DNA of 64,000 nucleotides from assembly GCA_045803545.1 (NCBI GenBank), contig JBJMOW010000004.1, positions 928,001-992,000 of the forward strand, in the 5' to 3' direction. The notes beneath the pieces were generated by a model, which was given only the letters and a program-made list of their open reading frames with translations, was not told the DNA's origin and did not search any database. The position numbers and the translations under genes are program-made. Below, in pieces: positions 23,700 through 64,000 of this stretch. This DNA is from Gemmatimonadaceae bacterium. Its GTDB lineage: Bacteria; Gemmatimonadota; Gemmatimonadetes; Gemmatimonadales; Gemmatimonadaceae. The first letter of the stretch is position 1, and the number at the start of each line of letters is the position of its first letter.

Positions 23700-23879
23700 A
23701 ACTACCTCGCTGGTAGCTGATAGCAGCTAGCTATTAGCTATTCGCTGCACGCGACGGGACAGATCGCGATAGAGTCAGAGGAAAGGCGTTCTGTTCGCAT
23801 TTATGCGATGAGATCGGTCCCGTTGGCAGCCAGCGATCAGCTATCAGCATGCTGCTATCAGCTACCAGCGAGGCAGTTG
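23700..23879. repeat. About 180-bp imperfect palindrome with (A)GCTATC(A) heptamer arms
   Basis: AACTACCTCGCTGGTAGCTGATAGCAGC vs GCTGCTATCAGCTACCAGCGAGGCAGTT (27/28 complementary), with further inner pairing. Confidence 0.8.
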
Positions 23880-45032: not shown

Positions 45033-45090
45033 GATTGAGGCGTTCGGACCAACAGCCTGAACTGGCTGTTTTAGTCCGAACGCCTCAATC
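45033..45090. mobile_element. 58-bp palindromic mini-element, internally deleted derivative of the 62676-63300 cassette
   Basis: First 25 bp identical to 62676-62700; right part closely matches 63271-63300. Confidence 0.8.
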
Positions 45091-57082: not shown

Positions 57083-58974
57083 GCCGTCTTCGCCTCGGTG
57101 GCAGCCAGGGTATCACGGAAGACATCGAGCGCGAGCTCCACTTTTCCAAATGGCGCCGACACCTGCACACCCTGGACATGCGGTCGCACGCGTTCGAGCA
57201 TCTCGCGAGCAATGGCGATTCCTTCGGCGACGCCGTGCTCCTTCGACTTCGCGCTTGCAGCCCGCATGCGCTCGATGATCTTCGGTGGCACGACGACGCC
57301 GGGGACTTCGTTGGCGAGGAACTCGGCGTTGCGCAAAGAGACGAGCGGCCAAATGCCGGCCACGATCGGAATCCGCACGTGGTCGATCGTGGAAAGGAAT
57401 TTGTCCAGCTGATTCACGTCAAACACCGGCTGTGTAATGGCGTATTCGGCGCCCGCTTCGACCTTCCACTCAAACCTCTTTAGTTCATGAGCGGGATCGA
57501 TCGCCGCCGGATTCACGCCGACGCCGATGGTGAACTTCGTCGGCTGGCCAATCGCGTTGGCGCCGGGATCGAGGCCGTGATTCAGGTTGCTCACCAGATT
57601 GGTGAGTCCGATCGCATCGATGTCGAAAACGGCGGTCGCATTAGGATACGGACCCATTTTCGGCGGATCGCCCGTGATCAGTAGCAAGTTGCGGAGGCCG
57701 ACCGCCGACGCTCCCAACAAATCGCTTAACATCCCCAGCAGATTGCGATCGCGACAGCAGTAATGGATGACAGTCTCGATTCCGACCTGCTGCTCGATGA
57801 GAATGCTGCAGAGGAGTGCACCCATCCGCGACTGAGCGCGCGGGCCGTCAGGGACGTTGACCGCGTCGACGCCTGCATCACGCAATGCAGCGGTGTCGCG
57901 AATCATCTTTGCCGCATCGACACCGCGCGGTGGAACGATCTCGACAGAGGTTACGAACTCTCCAGTGGCGATCTTGCGCCCCCACTTCGAACGCTCCGCG
58001 AGTGGCACGGGCTGGACCCCCGGATTCTCCGGCGGCACATCGGGATGACTCTGCCGCCTCTCCTTCATCGGCACGCGCGCCTGGCGTGGCGAAAGGGGAC
58101 GCACTCCCTCTACCATCGCCGCGATGTGCTCCGGCGTTGTTCCGCAGCAGCCCCCGACGATCTTGGCACCGGCCTGGACCAGGTGATGGGCATAGGTGGC
58201 CATGTACTCGGGGCTCGCCATGTACATGCTGCGACCGCTTACGTCGCGTGGCATGCCTGCGTTCGGCTGAGCAGATAATTTCCGCCGCGTAACCTGCGCC
58301 ATCTTTTCGATCGCATCGAGAATGATCTGCGGACCGACGGAGCAGTTGAGGCCGATGACGTCGGCGCCGAATGCGTCGAGCGTTTGCGCGAGATCTTCGG
58401 GCGTTACTCCATACGGAGTGTGACAATCAGAACCGATCGTCATCTGTGCGATGACAGGTATAGTCGCATCGACTTCGCGTGCGGCGAGAATCGCCTGCTC
58501 GACTTCGTGGATATCAGCGAAGGTCTCTAGGAGGAATAAATCGCAGCCCCCGTCCTTGAGCGCCTGCAACTGTTCACGGAATGCGGCGCGCGCCTCATCG
58601 AGACTGGTCGGACCAAAAGGCTCGATGCGAAGACCGAGCGGACCGACGGCGCCCGCCACAAGCAGCTCACCGTCCGCAACTTCGCGCGCCAGCTTTGCGG
58701 CAGCGCGATTGATCTCCGCCACCTGCGCGACGAGTCCGTATTGCTCGAGCTTGAAGCGATTGGCGCCGAAGCTATTGGTCTCCAGCACCTCGGCTCCCGC
58801 TTTCTTGTACGCCTTGTGGACGTCGCGCACGAGATCCGGCGCCCTAAGGTTAAGCTCGTCGTAGCACTGATTGATGAAGACGCCCTTGTTGTACAGCATC
58901 GTCCCCATCGCGCCGTCGAAGACGACGACCTGAAGCGGATCGAGAAGTCGCGACAGCAGCGGATTGTCAGGCAA
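57079..58974 (-). CDS. yitJ: Bifunctional homocysteine S-methyltransferase / methylenetetrahydrofolate reductase
   Basis: FDGAMGT, GLNC, GGCCGTTP, then MTHFR motifs CRDRN, ITGDP, ITQPVFD; TTG 58974 has GGAGG RBS. Confidence 0.9.
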   Translation of the reverse strand: MPDNPLLSRLLDPLQVVVFDGAMGTMLYNKGVFINQCYDELNLRAPDLVRDVHKAYKKAGAEVLETNSFGANRFKLEQYGLVAQVAEINRAAAKLAREVADGELLVAGAVGPLGLRIEPFGPTSLDEARAAFREQLQALKDGGCDLFLLETFADIHEVEQAILAAREVDATIPVIAQMTIGSDCHTPYGVTPEDLAQTLDAFGADVIGLNCSVGPQIILDAIEKMAQVTRRKLSAQPNAGMPRDVSGRSMYMASPEYMATYAHHLVQAGAKIVGGCCGTTPEHIAAMVEGVRPLSPRQARVPMKERRQSHPDVPPENPGVQPVPLAERSKWGRKIATGEFVTSVEIVPPRGVDAAKMIRDTAALRDAGVDAVNVPDGPRAQSRMGALLCSILIEQQVGIETVIHYCCRDRNLLGMLSDLLGASAVGLRNLLLITGDPPKMGPYPNATAVFDIDAIGLTNLVSNLNHGLDPGANAIGQPTKFTIGVGVNPAAIDPAHELKRFEWKVEAGAEYAITQPVFDVNQLDKFLSTIDHVRIPIVAGIWPLVSLRNAEFLANEVPGVVVPPKIIERMRAASAKSKEHGVAEGIAIAREMLERVRPHVQGVQVSAPFGKVELALDVFRDTLAATEAKTA

Positions 58975-61900
58975 CGGCGGCCTCCGGCGCGCCGGCTTGC
59001 GCACCCGTGCCGCGCACGGCGTAGTACTTCGCCTCTGGATGGTGCATGATCACTGCGGCGGTCGATTGTTCGGGCAGCAGCTGGAACGCTTCGGTGAGAT
59101 CCATGCCGAGCGCTTCTTTTGCGGGAAGCAGTTTGAACACGACGGTGTGATCGTCGAGATCGGGGCATGCGCCGTAGCCCCACGAGTATCTCTTCCCACT
59201 ATCTACGCCCAACTCTTTCTTGATGCGTCGATGCGCCCACTCGGCGACCGCTTCCGCCGATTCGACCGAGAGTCCGTGCGAGTAGAACGCTTCGGTGTAT
59301 TCGTTCCTGCCCTGGAGTTCGTCGAACCGCTTCGTCGCTTCGTCGCCGACGGTGACGACCTGCAGCGGTACGACGTCTACATCACCTGAATCCACGCTAC
59401 GCACATAGTCGGCGAGACAAAGCCGCTCGCGACCGACCATTCGCGGGAAGTGAAATCGCGCGATCTCGCGCAGCGAGCCGCCGTCGCTCGAGTATGCAGC
59501 CGGATCATAGATGATTACGTCGTTGCCCTTGGATTGGGCAGGGAAGTAGCCGTAGACGACTTGCGGTTTGATCCAACCGTTCTGCTTCGCATTTTTCTTG
59601 AGACGCTCGAGCGCGGGCTCGAACTCTTTCTTTACGGTTTGTTTGTAGGCATCGCCTGAGCCGCGCGCGCCCCACTGCAGGCGATATAGCTCGTCGAGAT
59701 CCAGCAGGTCGAATACTTCGTCGAGCGGAATGTCACGAATGACGCGGGTGCCCCAGAATGGCGGCTTAGGAACAGGATTGTTTGCCGCGACGTCGCTGCG
59801 CTCGCCACCTGCCTCGCCGACCGCGATGTCTTTGCCGACAGCAGTCTTCAGGAAAACGTCGTTGCGGGCGTCTTCGAGATTCTTGATCACGAATTCTTTG
59901 CGCTGCTTCGGATCCTGGAGCACGTCCATCGTCTCCAGTCCCTCGAAGGCATCCTTGCAGTAGAAGACGCCGGAACCGTAGTGTCGATCGCCGTCGACGA
60001 ACAGCGCCCGGCGGCCGAACCGACGATTGATTGCCGCGCCGCCGATCAACACGGGAATCTTCATCCCGCGCTTGTCGAGCTCCTGAACGCATAGCGGCAT
60101 CTGCTTCGACGTCGACACCAGCAGCGCACTCAATCCAATCGCATCAGCGCCAACTTCAACCGCCTTGTCCAGAATCGTGTTGACCGGAACTTGCTTGCCG
60201 AGGTCGTAGACGGTGTAGCCGTTGTTGGAGAGAATGGTGTTGACGAGCGATTTGCCGATGTCATGCACGTCGCCGTAGACCGTCGCGAGGACGACTTTGC
60301 CCTTGGTGAATCCCTCGGCCTTCTCGAGGAACTGCTCGAGATGTTTGACCGCCTTTTTCATTACTTCAGCGGACTGCAGAACGAAGGGGAGAATCAGCTC
60401 GCCAGCGCCGAACTTATCGCCGACTTCTTTCATCGCTGGCAGCAAGACATCGTTGAGCACCCGCACCGGATTCTCGCGCACGCCGGCGGTATCGAGCTGC
60501 TCTTCGATTCCTTCTTTCTTGCGGTGGAGGATCATCCAGTGGATGCGCTGATCCGACGTCATGCCCGCGGTCGGATCCTCTTTCTCGTTTTGCGTCGCCG
60601 CTGCGCCTGGTCCGGCCGCCGCGTAATGTTCGATGAAACGCTGAAGCGCGTCCGCCCGCTTGTTGAACACAAGATCATCGGCAAGCTCGCGCTCCGCCTG
60701 TGATATCTCGGCATAGGGCCGGATGTGCGCGGGATTGACGATCGCCGCGTCGAGCCCAGCCTGCACGCAATGGTGCAGGAACACCGAGTTGAGAACGCCC
60801 CGAGCATCCGGCGACAGACCAAAGCTGACGTTGGACACGCCAAGGATGGTCGATACGCCCGGGAGCTCGCGCTTTATGAGTCGAATGCCCTCGATCGTCT
60901 CTTTGCCCGACTCGATCCACTCCGCATCACCGGTCGCCAGCGTGAAGGTGAGCGCATCGTAGATGATATCCTCGGGTGCGAGGCCGTACTCATCGACAAC
61001 GATGTCGTAAATCTTTCTGGCGACCTCGAGCTTTCGCTCGCGGGTCTTTGCCATGCCGATCTCGTCGATGGTGAGCGCAATCACGGCTGCGCCGTGCTTT
61101 TTCACCAACGGCACCACAGCATCGATGCGCTTGCGGCCATTCTCCATATTGATGGAGTTCACGATTCCACGGCCGGGAATGTGCTCGAGCGCTTTCTCGA
61201 TGACGTTGGCTTCGGTCGAGTCGATGACGAGCGGCGTCTCAACGCTCATCGACAACAGCTTGACGACCTTCGACATCTGCTCGGCTTCGTCCGCGCGCTC
61301 GGTGAGCGCCACACAGACGTCGAGGACGTGCGCGCCCGAATCGACCTGATCGCGCGCCACCTCGAGAATGCCCTCGTAGTCGTCCGCGAGCAGGAGGCGC
61401 TTCACCTTGCGAGACCCCTGCGAATTGACGCGCTCCCCGACCAGAAGCGGCGGCGGATCCTGATGCAATGTGATCGCGCGCATCGCCGAGCTGACGCGTG
61501 GAACGTGACTCGGATGTTGAGGCTTCGATTCGGGCTCGGCTTTTCGAACCGCCTTGACGATCGCCGACAGGTGCTCGGGCGTCGTCCCACAACAGCCGCC
61601 CACGATACGAACACCGAAGTCGCGCACGAATTCCGAGAGCGCGGCCGCCATTGGTGCCGGCTCGAGCGGATAAACAGCTTCGCCGACGCCAGTGTTGAGC
61701 GGCAATCCCGCATTCGGAATTACCGAGAGCGGCAGAGTGGCATGCTCCGAGAGATAGCGAATTGGCTCGCGCATGTGCTCGGGACCAGTCGAGCAATTCA
61801 GTCCGATGACATCGACGTTGAGCGCCTCGAGTGTCGTCATCGCGCTGGCGATGTCGGTGCCGAGCAGCATGCGGCCGCTGACGTCGAGCGTGACCTGCGC

Positions 61901-62497
61901 CTGGATCGGAACGCGACGCCCGATTTCCGCGAACAGCTGCTCGATGCCGGCGACTGCAGCTTTTACTTCGAGGATGTCCTGCGAGGTCTCGATCAGAAGA
62001 ACGTCGACGCCGCCTTCGACGAGATACTTCGCCTGCTCGTAGTAATTCGCCGCGAGCTCTTCGTAGGTGATTTTGGATAGGGCCGGATCGGAGCTGGAAG
62101 GCAGCATTCCGGTTGGTCCCATCGATGCAGCGACGAACCGCGGTTTATCCGGCGTTGAGAATTTGTCCGCCGCCGCTCGCGCGAGCCGCGCCGCCGCGAT
62201 GTTGACCTCGCGCACTTTGTCGCCCAATCCCCATTCGTGCAACCGGCGCGGAGTCGACTGGAATGTGCAGGTCTCCACGACGTCGCAACCGACTTTCAGG
62301 AAGGATTCATGGATTTCCTGAATGACATCAGGCCGGGTGAGGACGAGGTGATCGTTGCACCCTTCGAGCGCTTTGCCTCCGAAATCTTCGGCGGTCAAGT
62401 GATAGCGCTGGATGTTCGTCCCCATCGCGCCGTCATAAACGAGGACGCGGCGATTCAGTTCTTCGAGGTAGCGAGAATCAATCTTTCGTTCAGCCAT
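58967..62497 (-). CDS. metH: Cobalamin-dependent methionine synthase
   Basis: DGAMGT, GLNC, GGCCGT, GERVN, GDVHDIGK B12 motif, RYSWGYGACP; ATG 62497 with GGGAG RBS. Confidence 0.96.
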   Translation of the reverse strand: MAERKIDSRYLEELNRRVLVYDGAMGTNIQRYHLTAEDFGGKALEGCNDHLVLTRPDVIQEIHESFLKVGCDVVETCTFQSTPRRLHEWGLGDKVREVNIAAARLARAAADKFSTPDKPRFVAASMGPTGMLPSSSDPALSKITYEELAANYYEQAKYLVEGGVDVLLIETSQDILEVKAAVAGIEQLFAEIGRRVPIQAQVTLDVSGRMLLGTDIASAMTTLEALNVDVIGLNCSTGPEHMREPIRYLSEHATLPLSVIPNAGLPLNTGVGEAVYPLEPAPMAAALSEFVRDFGVRIVGGCCGTTPEHLSAIVKAVRKAEPESKPQHPSHVPRVSSAMRAITLHQDPPPLLVGERVNSQGSRKVKRLLLADDYEGILEVARDQVDSGAHVLDVCVALTERADEAEQMSKVVKLLSMSVETPLVIDSTEANVIEKALEHIPGRGIVNSINMENGRKRIDAVVPLVKKHGAAVIALTIDEIGMAKTRERKLEVARKIYDIVVDEYGLAPEDIIYDALTFTLATGDAEWIESGKETIEGIRLIKRELPGVSTILGVSNVSFGLSPDARGVLNSVFLHHCVQAGLDAAIVNPAHIRPYAEISQAERELADDLVFNKRADALQRFIEHYAAAGPGAAATQNEKEDPTAGMTSDQRIHWMILHRKKEGIEEQLDTAGVRENPVRVLNDVLLPAMKEVGDKFGAGELILPFVLQSAEVMKKAVKHLEQFLEKAEGFTKGKVVLATVYGDVHDIGKSLVNTILSNNGYTVYDLGKQVPVNTILDKAVEVGADAIGLSALLVSTSKQMPLCVQELDKRGMKIPVLIGGAAINRRFGRRALFVDGDRHYGSGVFYCKDAFEGLETMDVLQDPKQRKEFVIKNLEDARNDVFLKTAVGKDIAVGEAGGERSDVAANNPVPKPPFWGTRVIRDIPLDEVFDLLDLDELYRLQWGARGSGDAYKQTVKKEFEPALERLKKNAKQNGWIKPQVVYGYFPAQSKGNDVIIYDPAAYSSDGGSLREIARFHFPRMVGRERLCLADYVRSVDSGDVDVVPLQVVTVGDEATKRFDELQGRNEYTEAFYSHGLSVESAEAVAEWAHRRIKKELGVDSGKRYSWGYGACPDLDDHTVVFKLLPAKEALGMDLTEAFQLLPEQSTAAVIMHHPEAKYYAVRGTGAQAGAPEAAVA

Positions 62498-62532
62498 CGG
62501 TTCCCAGCTCCCGCTCTTAACTGAGCGGTAAC

Positions 62533-62559
62533 AAAAAAGCCCGCGCATAGGCGCCGGGC
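62533..62559 (-). terminator. Intrinsic terminator in the metH leader
   Basis: Minus strand GCCCGGCGC-CTAT-GCGCGGGC-TTTTTT. Confidence 0.8.
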
Positions 62560-62564
62560 CAGCG

Positions 62565-62612
62565 CTTTAGCGGATTGTTTAACGTGGCCGCAAGTTGCTT
62601 TAAATCGCCACG
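62565..62612 (-). ncRNA. SAM-II (SAM-alpha-like) riboswitch aptamer
   Basis: CGTGGCGATTTaaagcaacTTGCGGCCACGttAAACAATCCGCTAAAG: P1 CGTGGC/GCCACG plus GATTT, TTGC and GCTAAA elements; upstream of metH. Confidence 0.8.
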
Positions 62613-62634
62613 ATTTCGATTAACACCCTTCGCT

Positions 62635-62663
62635 ATTGTAGTGAGGAGATCGGCGCTCGGCAA
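62635..62663 (-). promoter_or_regulatory. Sigma70 promoter TTGCCG-N17-TACAAT for the met operon
   Basis: Near-consensus boxes about 22 nt upstream of the aptamer. Confidence 0.7.
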
Positions 62664-62675
62664 GTTCTTGATGCG

Positions 62676-63300
62676 GATTGAGGCGTTCGGACCAACAGCC
62701 ATTCCGGAGTTCGGATTAATTGAGGGCCGAGGGGTAGACCCGCAATCGAAGGGTAGTTGGCACGCGCGAAAGGTTCTTGAACGCTTGGGCGACCACATAG
62801 CTTAGCGGCGTGAGTCATAAGCTATCGCCCGTGAGTGCAGATACTTCGAACGACCCGCTGCTCAGAATGCGAGCTTACACTCTTGGCCAGGAGTTACTCG
62901 ACGTGGCCTGGGTGGATGCAAAAACACTGAGTGGTGACGCGCTCACAGAACAGATTTCCGGACAACTTTACGCAGCAATCGCTTCGATTTCTGCGAACAT
63001 TGGCGAGGGATATTCTCGCAGTTCCGGCAAAGATCGTTCGAGAATATTTGAGTACGCGCTCGGCTCGGTTCGTGAAGCGATGGTCTGGTACCGAGCAGCG
63101 AAGCCAGTCATTGGGGAGGTTTCGACCGAACGACTCAACAAGTTGGAAGAGATTCGGCGCATGCTTCTGGTCATAATCCCGCGAGAACGCGGCAAGACTA
63201 TTCGTCCAAAGAATCGCCCGGGCTTAACTAACTAAAGTTAGATCCTCGCCCCTCAATTAATCCGAACTCCGAACTGGCCGTTGGTCCGAACGCCTCAATC
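62676..63300. mobile_element. Inverted-repeat-bounded cassette carrying a four-helix-bundle gene
   Basis: 57-bp arms at 62676-62732 and 63244-63300, 53/57 complementary. Confidence 0.8.
62810..63235 (+). CDS. Four-helix-bundle protein (23S rRNA intervening-sequence protein / Avd-like family)
   Basis: QLYAAIASISANIGEGYSRSSGKDRSRIFEYALGSVRE matches the family pattern QL.RA..SI..NIAEG..R....D...F...A.GS..E. Confidence 0.9.
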   Translation: MSHKLSPVSADTSNDPLLRMRAYTLGQELLDVAWVDAKTLSGDALTEQISGQLYAAIASISANIGEGYSRSSGKDRSRIFEYALGSVREAMVWYRAAKPVIGEVSTERLNKLEEIRRMLLVIIPRERGKTIRPKNRPGLTN

Positions 63301-63712
63301 AAAACTGTACCTGATAATCCTCCCCGCCAATTTCCCTCTGCGATCTGCCCGTCGTCCTCGATCTGCAATCAAACGACTGTACCAACGCCATCAAGCGCTG
63401 CCTCTCCAACGGCAAAACCAAATGCGCCAAAGTCGCCCGCTGCAGCTTCGGCGGCAGAAAGAGATGCTCTCCATGCGATTTTCCGTAGACGATCAACGCG
63501 GCGTTAGTAGTGAGGGGAAGCGATGCGGCCTGACCGGCTTCCGTTACCTCCTCACTCGATACGACTACAACCTCGGTTTCGTCCGCGCGCATCATAGCTG
63601 CCGCGTCCGGGAGCGTTGCCGCGAACTCGACATCGTGACCGCAGCCGAGCAGGGTTTGCGCTAAGCCCTCGAGCAGCGCGACGTCGGCGCCGACGAGTAT
63701 CACCTTACACAT
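63299..63712 (-). CDS. Degenerate receiver-like (CheY-fold) hypothetical protein
   Basis: VILVG.D.ALLEGL.Q.L...GHDV pattern; lacks the canonical Asp/Lys residues. Confidence 0.55.
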   Translation of the reverse strand: MCKVILVGADVALLEGLAQTLLGCGHDVEFAATLPDAAAMMRADETEVVVVSSEEVTEAGQAASLPLTTNAALIVYGKSHGEHLFLPPKLQRATLAHLVLPLERQRLMALVQSFDCRSRTTGRSQREIGGEDYQVQF

Positions 63713-63831
63713 CGCAGCAAGCCTCAGCCATTCTTTGAATCGACTCGGGGTGAACTCTTGTGCGCCTCTACTACCTTTCGTGACGCGGGTCGCTCACGAT
63801 GCACACATTGCGCCGTGAGTGGTGCGCCCGC

Positions 63832-64000
63832 TCATACCAGTCGCAACAATCCTGACTGGATGATGCCGAGTAGGATGTAGGCGATGATCGGCGTGATGTC
63901 GAGCCCGCCAAGCACCGGAACTATTCGCCGCAGCGGCGACAGGATCGGCTCGCTCAGTCGGTAACTCCAGCTGACCCAGGGCGAGTAGGGAGAGATCGGG
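63832..64000 (-). CDS. YggT-family membrane protein, C-terminal part (5' end outside window)
   Basis: Manual translation: ...YRLSEPILSPLRRIVPVLGGLDITPIIAYILLGIIQSGLLRLV*. Confidence 0.85.
   Translation of the reverse strand, partial: PISPYSPWVSWSYRLSEPILSPLRRIVPVLGGLDITPIIAYILLGIIQSGLLRLV

Follow-up and report, generated by a model that had tools for sequence, protein, structure and literature searches.

The intergenic region upstream of metH in the window (the whole 64-kb stretch of DNA that was analysed) contains a 625-nt cassette in which a single gene for a four-helix-bundle protein is enclosed by two long inverted arms. We favour, with moderate confidence, the interpretation of this cassette as a gene-carrying hairpin element, that is a counterpart outside rRNA of the ORF-bearing intervening sequences (IVSs) of 23S rRNA, which probably spreads, and undergoes rearrangement, as DNA. 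The genome of the window, hereafter denoted G000, is a metagenome-assembled genome (MAG) of a soil bacterium of the Gemmatimonadaceae, of 3.7 Mb in 6 contigs and is 93% complete; its closest relative is denoted G014.

Architecture of the cassette at the metH locus

The left arm (62676–62732; 57 nt) is G-rich on the plus strand and consists of two modules, with GATTGAGGCGTTCGGA on the outside and CGGATTAATTGAGGG on the inside. An inverted-repeat search bore out the coordinates given in the preliminary description: the right arm (63244–63300; 57 nt) is the reverse complement of the left at 53/57 positions (93%), with 511 nt between the two, and the pair forms the longest inverted repeat in the window. 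The loop is filled by one ORF, that of the four-helix-bundle protein (62810–63235, plus strand; 141 aa, GTG start), which begins 77 nt past the left arm and stops 8 nt before the right arm. The spacer leading from the left arm to the start codon (62733–62809, plus strand) is divergent between G000 and G014; no Shine–Dalgarno sequence is evident in its 77 nt, and reading by eye revealed no convincing shared −35 that would mark a possible internal promoter, or a start without a leader, for the gene.

Both neighbouring genes lie on the minus strand, the enclosed ORF being antisense to each of them, as first described. One neighbour is metH (58967–62548; likely start 62497), the leader of which carries a SAM-II (SAM_alpha) riboswitch (62543–62621, minus strand; RF00521, 44.7 bits). 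A promoter-like site of metH (62635–62663, minus strand; TTGCCG-17-TACAAT), with −10 and −35 words that are conserved in relatives, precedes the riboswitch, and given the location of this site the left arm starts 12 nt beyond the −35 box. On the other side, the right arm shares its final 2 nt with the TGA stop codon (63299–63301) of the second neighbour gene (63299–63712, minus strand). The position originally assigned to the cassette, between a stop codon and the metH promoter, is therefore correct. An orthologous cassette, with arms that are 96% complementary, is present at the same site and in the same orientation in G014, and hence the cassette is not an assembly artefact.

The enclosed gene encodes a predicted four-helix bundle

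The proposed membership of the ORF in PF05635/TIGR02436 was confirmed by profile search, in which the protein scored above both curated cut-offs (40.4 versus 33.8 bits for PF05635; 51.4 versus 24 bits for TIGR02436). The core motif Q..(R)A..S...N..EG is present, with Q52, A56, S59, N63, E66 and G67 invariant across the two subfamilies of the genome; an N-terminus of the form M/V-S-H is common to the cassette protein, its G014 orthologue and paralogues F and H. The subfamily to which the cassette protein belongs is divergent and was found in 15 of the 301 phylum genomes sampled, all of them Gemmatimonadaceae.

A structure model built from six subfamily members (pLDDT 84, pTM 0.76) places helices at residues 16–41, 47–69, 73–101 and 104–127. 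The best 10 Foldseek matches to this model consist only of 2rld and 2gsc chains (target TM 0.77–0.85; E 2.6e-3 to 6.6e-2), and the sequence of the protein itself matches 2gsc_A (E 0.0045). The model is that of an up-down four-helix bundle, and we predict a fold like that of 2GSC and 2RLD. These entries are the two solved structures of the 'S23 ribosomal protein family'. A homopentameric ring has been reported for XCC0516 and for Avd. The S23p/IVS-protein family is very large and, to our knowledge, has been without an assigned function since 1993. The G000 and G014 orthologues are 86% identical in amino acid sequence (dN 0.10, dS 1.79), values which indicate that the cassette gene is functional and under purifying selection.

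Genes of this family are packaged between inverted repeats

Profile searches of G000 revealed eight PF05635/TIGR02436 loci, one of which is frameshifted. The check that had been proposed, whether such genes carry long inverted repeats genome-wide, gave a positive answer: all eight loci are enclosed by inverted repeats (22–126 nt; units of 579–819 bp), versus 1/400 random 330-bp segments of G000 at E<=0.01, this one repeat being 14 nt long. Since just one random segment was so enclosed, chance is excluded as the origin of the cassette arms. The eight arm pairs are unrelated to one another in sequence, and several are made of short tandem repeats.

The same arrangement is seen in other Gemmatimonadota, where 58/66 testable loci are enclosed (shifted controls, 1/101), with a median arm of 55.5 nt and a median unit of 600 bp; this phylum sample comprised 80 loci, all from Gemmatimonadota, 14 of which were left out as lying near a contig end. 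Within the cassette's own subfamily, 17 of the 20 testable loci are enclosed (2 skipped). Phyla beyond Gemmatimonadota were sampled solely through 6 of 12 cyanobacterial plasmid matches; all 6 of these genes lie between inverted arrays of 6–8-nt repeats (6/6 at E<=0.05, 5 of them at <=0.01; controls 0/12), and 4 are wedged inside operons, two of them at cas6-cas4, one at cas10-cmr3 and one at a parA-like gene and parB. Together, these comparisons show that arms and gene constitute a recurrent, selected package. We found no description of cassettes of this kind outside rRNA in the literature searched, the coverage of which stops short of subscription journals.

A local palindrome is present on neither side in 76/83 cassettes, and for these an arrangement in which the gene is merely flanked by two complete hairpins is ruled out. 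Flanking of the latter type, by two complete palindromic hairpins, is found at a SnoaL-like gene in G000 (G000:C2:39094–40002).

The arms also have a characteristic composition. Read inward from either side, 66 cassettes have G-rich arms, as against 14 with C-rich ones (p 3e-9), and the inward-read arm closes more reading frames by stop codons than its complement does in 32 cassettes, versus 9 with the reverse and 42 ties. By symmetry, the inward G-richness is unaffected by the orientation of the gene. A rule that the arms always abut the stop codon of a neighbour was considered, 12/16 elements of G000 having an end −21 to +5 nt from the stop of a crude long ORF, and was dropped on the wider sample, in which 13/80 ends lie −20 to +5 nt from a stop and 29/80 within 20 nt, with just 80/161 ends facing an inbound ORF (the arm limits here being BLAST limits).

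Gene-less hairpins and arm families

The arm sequence of the metH cassette recurs in G000 in about ten gene-less hairpins. Five of these, of 106–123 bp, have arms parted by a small apical hairpin alone; there are shorter, nested versions of 31–58 bp and a few truncated copies. One of the short versions, a 58-bp mini-hairpin with only the outer module, lies in the window itself (45033–45090; G000:C2:973033–973090). The arm search of genome and relatives that had been put forward as a check retrieved further copies in both G000 and G014, the latter having at least 11; among 31 genus genomes the family was matched in these two only.

An alignment of 16 gene-less copies revealed outer (17-bp) and inner (13-bp) stems that are nearly invariant, separated by a middle part that varies in both sequence and length, with double-sided change at only three pairs. 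Near-invariant stem modules around a variable middle point to a sequence that is recognised and not simply to a stem.

Each of the eight G000 cassettes has its own arm family, with 1–13 other loci apiece and 56 in total. The arms of a related type found at the metH locus of G012 are multi-copy in G012 and G017, have 0 matches in G014, and have one marginal match in G000; the subfamily gene and the G012-type arms occur in 17 and 18 of the 31 genomes, respectively, an imperfect overlap in a set that includes many incomplete MAGs. Between the G000 and G014 cassettes the arms differ by double-sided changes at 3–4 positions (by eye), and each pair is still 93–96% complementary. Cassette arms and dispersed hairpins thus share a lineage-specific sequence, as would be expected if the hairpins were spawned from, or homogenised with, the gene-carrying copy. 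One of the five G000 gene-less copies has a 12-mer in common with the cassette interior (reached by 2/300 shuffles), and an 11-mer match, which may be chance, lies inside the coding region in G014; because one gene-less copy alone shares a 12-mer, the direction from cassette to hairpin is weakly supported.

Occupancy of the metH site and turnover of hairpin sites

Overlays of the G000 and G014 hairpin sites identify three that are shared, three that are filled in G014 only, and two with a different hairpin family in each genome. The site of the 58-bp mini-hairpin of G000 (45033–45090) contains a full hairpin of ~125 bp in G014. The arms are thus part of a hairpin family that is dispersed in the genome, confined to this lineage and subject to turnover of its sites.

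The metH site varies among relatives in a similar manner. In G012 and G017 the whole cassette interior is inverted and the arms are related in type but not the same; the site is occupied by a gene-less hairpin in G021; short spacers of tens of bases are found in G010, G011 and G003; and in G015, G005, G009 and G024 another gene is present, with no cassette. These comparisons show that arms and gene form one unit, which the genomes compared carry at the metH site in one orientation or the other, as a hairpin without the gene, or not at all. Cassette-free sites, for which the alignment of orthologous metH upstream regions had been suggested, do exist among relatives, and a cassette fixed at this locus and with no other copies, the situation named in the preliminary description as arguing against mobility, is not what is observed.

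In the metH tree, two cassette-occupied clades are separated by unoccupied species. Repeated loss of an old cassette, together with a single flip, would account for this patchy pattern as well as re-insertion would. No target-site duplication was found by eye at the flanks of 8 copies, nor at the cassette, and no clean empty site was found between G014 and G000, whose ~20% divergence blurs the junctions. Some of the 'empty' sites carry relic-like words or another hairpin family, and loss rather than gain may explain some of them on account of these relic-like words. The description of the cassette as a mobile unit is hence supported in its comparative aspect, by presence and absence among relatives and by dispersed gene-less copies, whilst no jump, circle or cut end was seen.

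An arm duplication with a flipped resident gene

A blind census of long inverted repeats in G000 identified 41 loci, ten of them with loops >350 nt; six of these ten are four-helix-bundle cassettes and another is the SnoaL-like gene locus. At G000:C4:1137712–1138409, single arms of the type found in the H cassette surround a 128-aa membrane-protein gene that has no Pfam match. This gene is resident in the genus and has the opposite orientation in 12/12 relatives in which gene and flanks could be matched; G014 lacks an inverted repeat at the locus, where a related C-rich array is present to the right alone. Therefore, a second, inverted arm arose and the gene with its leader was flipped in the G000 lineage. 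The second arm copy is placed exactly between two convergent stop codons.

The locus shows that arms are able to duplicate as inverted copies and to flip DNA. It has the form expected as the product either of replicative inverted copying of an arm, or of insertion followed by arm–arm recombination; for the flip locus itself, two insertions and then arm–arm recombination are possible. Intramolecular replicative transposition with inversion is known from elements of the Tn3, Mu and IS26 type, with which the locus has in common a second, inverted copy of the element and a flipped intervening gene. It differs from them in that the 'element' is a ~60–110-nt non-coding repeat array, with none of six transposase or reverse transcriptase (RT) families found.

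RNA stem or DNA-level process

The preliminary description proposed that RNA of the cassette would fold into a long stem with the gene in its loop. When either strand is folded, the terminal stem is indeed part of the predicted minimum-energy structure (−276.7 kcal/mol, z −7.1 for one strand; −270.9 kcal/mol, z −9.2 for the other), and two of the four arm mismatches become G-U on the minus strand, which would be read through from the neighbouring gene. A selected stem in coding-strand RNA should enrich the mismatches for G-U on that strand. Across 66 cassettes oriented by their gene, 85 mismatches are of the sense-G-U and 76 of the antisense-G-U type (p 0.53), with 178 of the transversion type; neither G-U strand bias nor wobble enrichment is present in this set. 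The long stem consequently stands as a prediction for both strands, and the mismatches carry no sign of selection at the RNA level. A selected RNA stem was dropped as the main reading on the basis of these counts (85 versus 76), and the lack of strand bias favours DNA-level copying or conversion between arms as the cause of their likeness. The same lack of bias is compatible with RNA stems that work on both strands.

In a search for expression, three soil metatranscriptomes contained 5–7% of the sampled words, a trace cover. In one soil RNA library, two perfect 151-nt contigs cover 63009–63288, from the gene into the right arm, although DNA carry-over is possible.

Search for a mover and comparison with known systems

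Profiles for Y1_Tnp (PF01797), RVT_1, rve, DDE_Tnp_1, the TnpB zinc-ribbon and IS110 DEDD each gave 0 matches in the 93% complete genome. All six transposase/RT profiles gave matches in control genomes, and MAGs can miss IS elements. The earlier remark that no transposase or RT is visible in the window accordingly extends, for these six families, to the whole genome.

PMC4990558 describes ORF-bearing IVSs in 23S rRNA, in helix 45 of Coxiella burnetii and in Leptospira, with an S23p ORF, as well as the cutting by RNase III of rRNA IVSs of the same layout; it cites Ralph and McClelland 1993. The cassette resembles the IVSs in that account in having the same protein family in the loop of a long terminal stem, in size (428 nt for the Coxiella IVS; 625 nt for the cassette, with a phylum median of 600), in its sporadic presence among relatives, and in the occurrence of short tandem repeats, which adjoin the ORF in Coxiella and are present in many of the cassette arms; an old suggestion mentioned there, that the ORF serves mobility, is applicable to both (PMC4990558). 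The two differ, as far as the same text goes, in location (an IVS lies in helix 9, 25 or 45 of 23S rRNA, the cassette between protein-coding genes), in the stem (28 bp in Coxiella versus 57-nt arms), in the state of the ORF (reported as decaying in Coxiella, and under purifying selection in the cassette), and in that the IVS is cut by RNase III whereas the cassette is known here from its sequence and predicted fold (PMC4990558). The cassette differs further in having dispersed gene-less copies and in lying either way round with respect to the transcription of its host. The G000 assembly contains no 23S rRNA in which an rRNA IVS might be seen. Terminal inverted repeats that form a stem around an S23p ORF are one feature of an ORF-bearing IVS, and the cassette has it; by its layout it resembles such an IVS and, of the features tested, lacks only the defining one, a location in 23S rRNA.

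Avd, the DGR accessory protein of Bordetella phage BPP-1, is PF05635-like (PMC10053308); this homologous four-helix bundle offers a precedent for an adaptor between nucleic acid and polymerase. The cassette differs from a DGR in lacking both an RVT_1 match in G000 and a template/variable repeat pair (no direct repeats, as TR/VR would be, were found within 62000–64000), and in having its gene inside its own inverted repeat.

Among the MITEs and palindromic repeats of bacteria are Correia/NEMIS and REP/REPIN with RAYT; PMC3116915, PMC3733652 and PMC10969869 are among the papers on such repeats. Like these, the cassette's relatives are dispersed intergenic hairpin repeats in lineage-specific families, with non-coding copies presumed to be moved in trans. 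In contrast to REP/REPIN-RAYT, RAYT/Y1 is absent from G000 and the hairpins are modular, of 106–135 bp, as against palindromes of 20–40 nt; in contrast to MITEs, the cassette hairpins have no target-site duplication, and the 'master' of each family carries a four-helix-bundle gene and not a transposase. The first classification, as an IVS-like or MITE-like unit outside rRNA, therefore stands for the IVS-type layout, whilst the target-site duplication of a MITE and, among the families searched, its cognate transposase were not found. By the features tested, the cassette is not a DGR, a REP-RAYT system or a classical MITE.

Integron cassettes are likewise one-gene units, of ~0.5–1 kb, and their attC site is an imperfect inverted repeat that acts as a folded single strand and is conserved in structure more than in sequence. 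The likeness lies in the one-gene unit with an imperfect inverted repeat; the difference is that the repeat halves flank the gene in the cassette described here, whereas in attC they are together at one end, and that this cassette is not part of an array; no integron integrase was noticed nearby.

Proposed mechanism and alternative explanations

For the cassette as a gene-carrying hairpin element, the reading that we favour, the following mechanism is proposed. The two near-invariant arm modules would be cis sites that are read sequence-specifically, most likely by the cassette's own protein, and the four-helix bundle would be an adaptor through which replication or recombination enzymes of the host are engaged, much as its relative Avd serves the RT of a DGR. 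New arms may arise as inverted copies, with copying or conversion of DNA keeping the arms alike, and the gene-less hairpins would be derivatives moved in trans. In a read-through transcript of the host, the 57-bp stem could form on either strand and RNase III could cut it as in rRNA IVSs; such cutting would make insertions between genes harmless. A broader proposal, which we put forward tentatively and regard as having a rather limited chance of being correct, is that there is a class of mobile DNA that does without a transposase and in which IVS proteins are dedicated to the recognition of arms, each reading the conserved modules of its own arms and recruiting host replication or repair enzymes; rRNA IVSs, many of the dispersed hairpin repeats of bacteria and the short tandem repeat arrays of cyanobacteria would then all result from one mechanism, so far undescribed. 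Under that proposal, host enzymes would place an inverted copy of an arm at a new site, from which hairpins without a gene, cassettes with a gene in the hairpin, and flipped resident genes would follow.

An alternative that we consider unlikely is that the cassette is an RNA device only and is not mobile now, its stem serving as an RNase III site by which the cassette is excised or insulated, stabilising or limiting the mRNA, or keeping read-through out of the metH promoter. Minimum-energy folds of both strands that include the terminal stem, the two of four mismatches that turn into G-U on the minus strand, the placement between a gene end and a promoter, and the RNase III cutting of rRNA IVSs of the same layout (PMC4990558) all suit such a device; the mismatches of the 66 cassettes (85/76/178), with neither strand bias nor wobble enrichment, and the stem modules, conserved in sequence and not covarying, do not, and a DNA-level process is needed for the dispersed lineage-restricted copies, the site turnover and the inverted arm duplication. 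The arms might instead be a target, a small gene unit having inserted into the apical loop of pre-existing palindromes, of which the gene-less hairpins would be empty examples. This would account for the exact replacement by the gene of the small apical hairpin of gene-less copies, for the greater number of gene-less hairpins than cassettes, and for the gene-less hairpin at the metH site of G021; IVSs likewise sit at rRNA helix tips. Nevertheless, cassettes with different arms share no conserved core ends, the arms of orthologous cassettes vary from lineage to lineage in step with the dispersed hairpins of their genome, as fits spawning from a master copy, and 12 nt of the cassette interior in one gene-less copy point, weakly, the same way; we accordingly give this explanation a small probability.

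It is still less probable that the cassette is a MITE-like transposon, with arms that are the ends of an IS whose transposase is elsewhere or unassembled and a four-helix-bundle gene that is a passenger. Long terminal inverted repeats, several gene-less copies and presence/absence polymorphism are what such a transposon would have. Against it, however, target-site duplication is missing at 8 copies, one kind of gene is found within eight unrelated arm families, its association with arms recurs in the two phyla tested, the six transposase/RT families were not found in the 6-contig assembly, and repeat-built arms of 57–126 nt are unlike IS ends. Coincidence or an assembly artefact has a negligible probability: G000 is metagenome-assembled, which is the one point in its favour, and it is opposed by the 8/8 enclosed loci versus 1/400 random segments, by the orthologous G014 cassette with its 96% complementary arms, and by the two perfect 151-nt contigs that run from the gene into the right arm in an independent soil RNA library.

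Implications

The cassette at the metH site links the S23p/IVS-protein family, rRNA intervening sequences, and dispersed hairpin and short tandem repeats, in the setting of one small genome that lacks recognisable transposases. For this family G000 offers eight protein–arm pairs, two near-invariant modules, gene-less derivatives and a dated arm duplication. If the protein is not arm-binding, the cassette would still be a clean model for the tolerance and the symmetry of long hairpins in bacterial chromosomes. If it is an arm-binding factor, a new way of moving DNA would be defined, and the presence of such genes in operons, for example at CRISPR-cas loci, would be explained.

Arm handedness and retention

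Of the 83 cassettes examined, which comprise those of the source genome (G000) and loci L054-L184, 66 have arms that are G-rich when read inward from either side, whereas in 14 the inward-read arm is C-rich (p 3e-9); stop codons are more numerous in the inward-read arm than in its complement in 32 of these cassettes, with the reverse in 9. As inward reading is symmetric between the two sides, the handedness of the arms is independent of gene orientation. One of the eight G000 cassettes (G000:C6:61266-61864) carries a frameshifted four-helix-bundle gene, present as two overlapping pieces of 69 aa each; despite the frameshift, its 60-nt arms are retained at 93% complementarity, and the arm matches nine further loci.

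Arms and hairpins without a four-helix-bundle gene

Single arms of the cassette H family (H-type) enclose a resident gene for a 128-aa membrane protein (G000:C4:1137712-1138409; locus L185:1213-1910), the orientation of which is opposite to that in 12 of 12 relatives. At the orthologous site of the closest relative, G014, just one flank has a related array; from these sequence comparisons, the locus looks like an inverted duplication of the arm that flipped the host gene. A SnoaL-like gene (PF12680; G000:C2:39094-40002, locus L186) has a complete palindromic hairpin of ~145 nt on each side, belonging to a further, separate family; in G014 the gene is present without flanking hairpins. At two orthologous intergenic sites (G000:C4:882729-882779 and C4:1338475-1338625 versus G014:C153 and G014:C5) the hairpin families differ between the species, which would reflect either hot spots or replacement of one hairpin by another. 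The window also contains a gene-less hairpin (23700-23878), with 48-nt arms, 85% complementary and 83 nt apart, composed of GCTGATAGC/GCTATTAGC-like repeats; its arm family differs from that of the window cassette.

Surroundings of the window cassette

The 137-aa neighbour gene (63299-63712, minus strand), without a match in either Pfam or NCBIfam, varies among relatives in its C-terminus and stop codon, precisely at the junction with the cassette. Upstream of metH lies a SAM-II riboswitch (SAM_alpha, RF00521; 62543-62621, minus strand), the core of which (62554-62612) shares 81-85% identity with genomes from other families of the order. The family takes its name from Alphaproteobacteria; here it occurs in a Gemmatimonadaceae genome.

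Cassettes within CRISPR-cas operons

On three cyanobacterial plasmids, L155 (NZ_CP112875.1), L156 (NC_019429.1) and L157 (NZ_CP016476.1), a CRISPR-cas operon is interrupted by a four-helix-bundle gene that is accompanied by inverted arrays of the heptamer type, between cas6 and cas4 in two cases and between cas10 and cmr3 in one. Such insertions may explain why a figure legend (PMC10910872) lists the four-helix-bundle Pfam family as CRISPR-linked.
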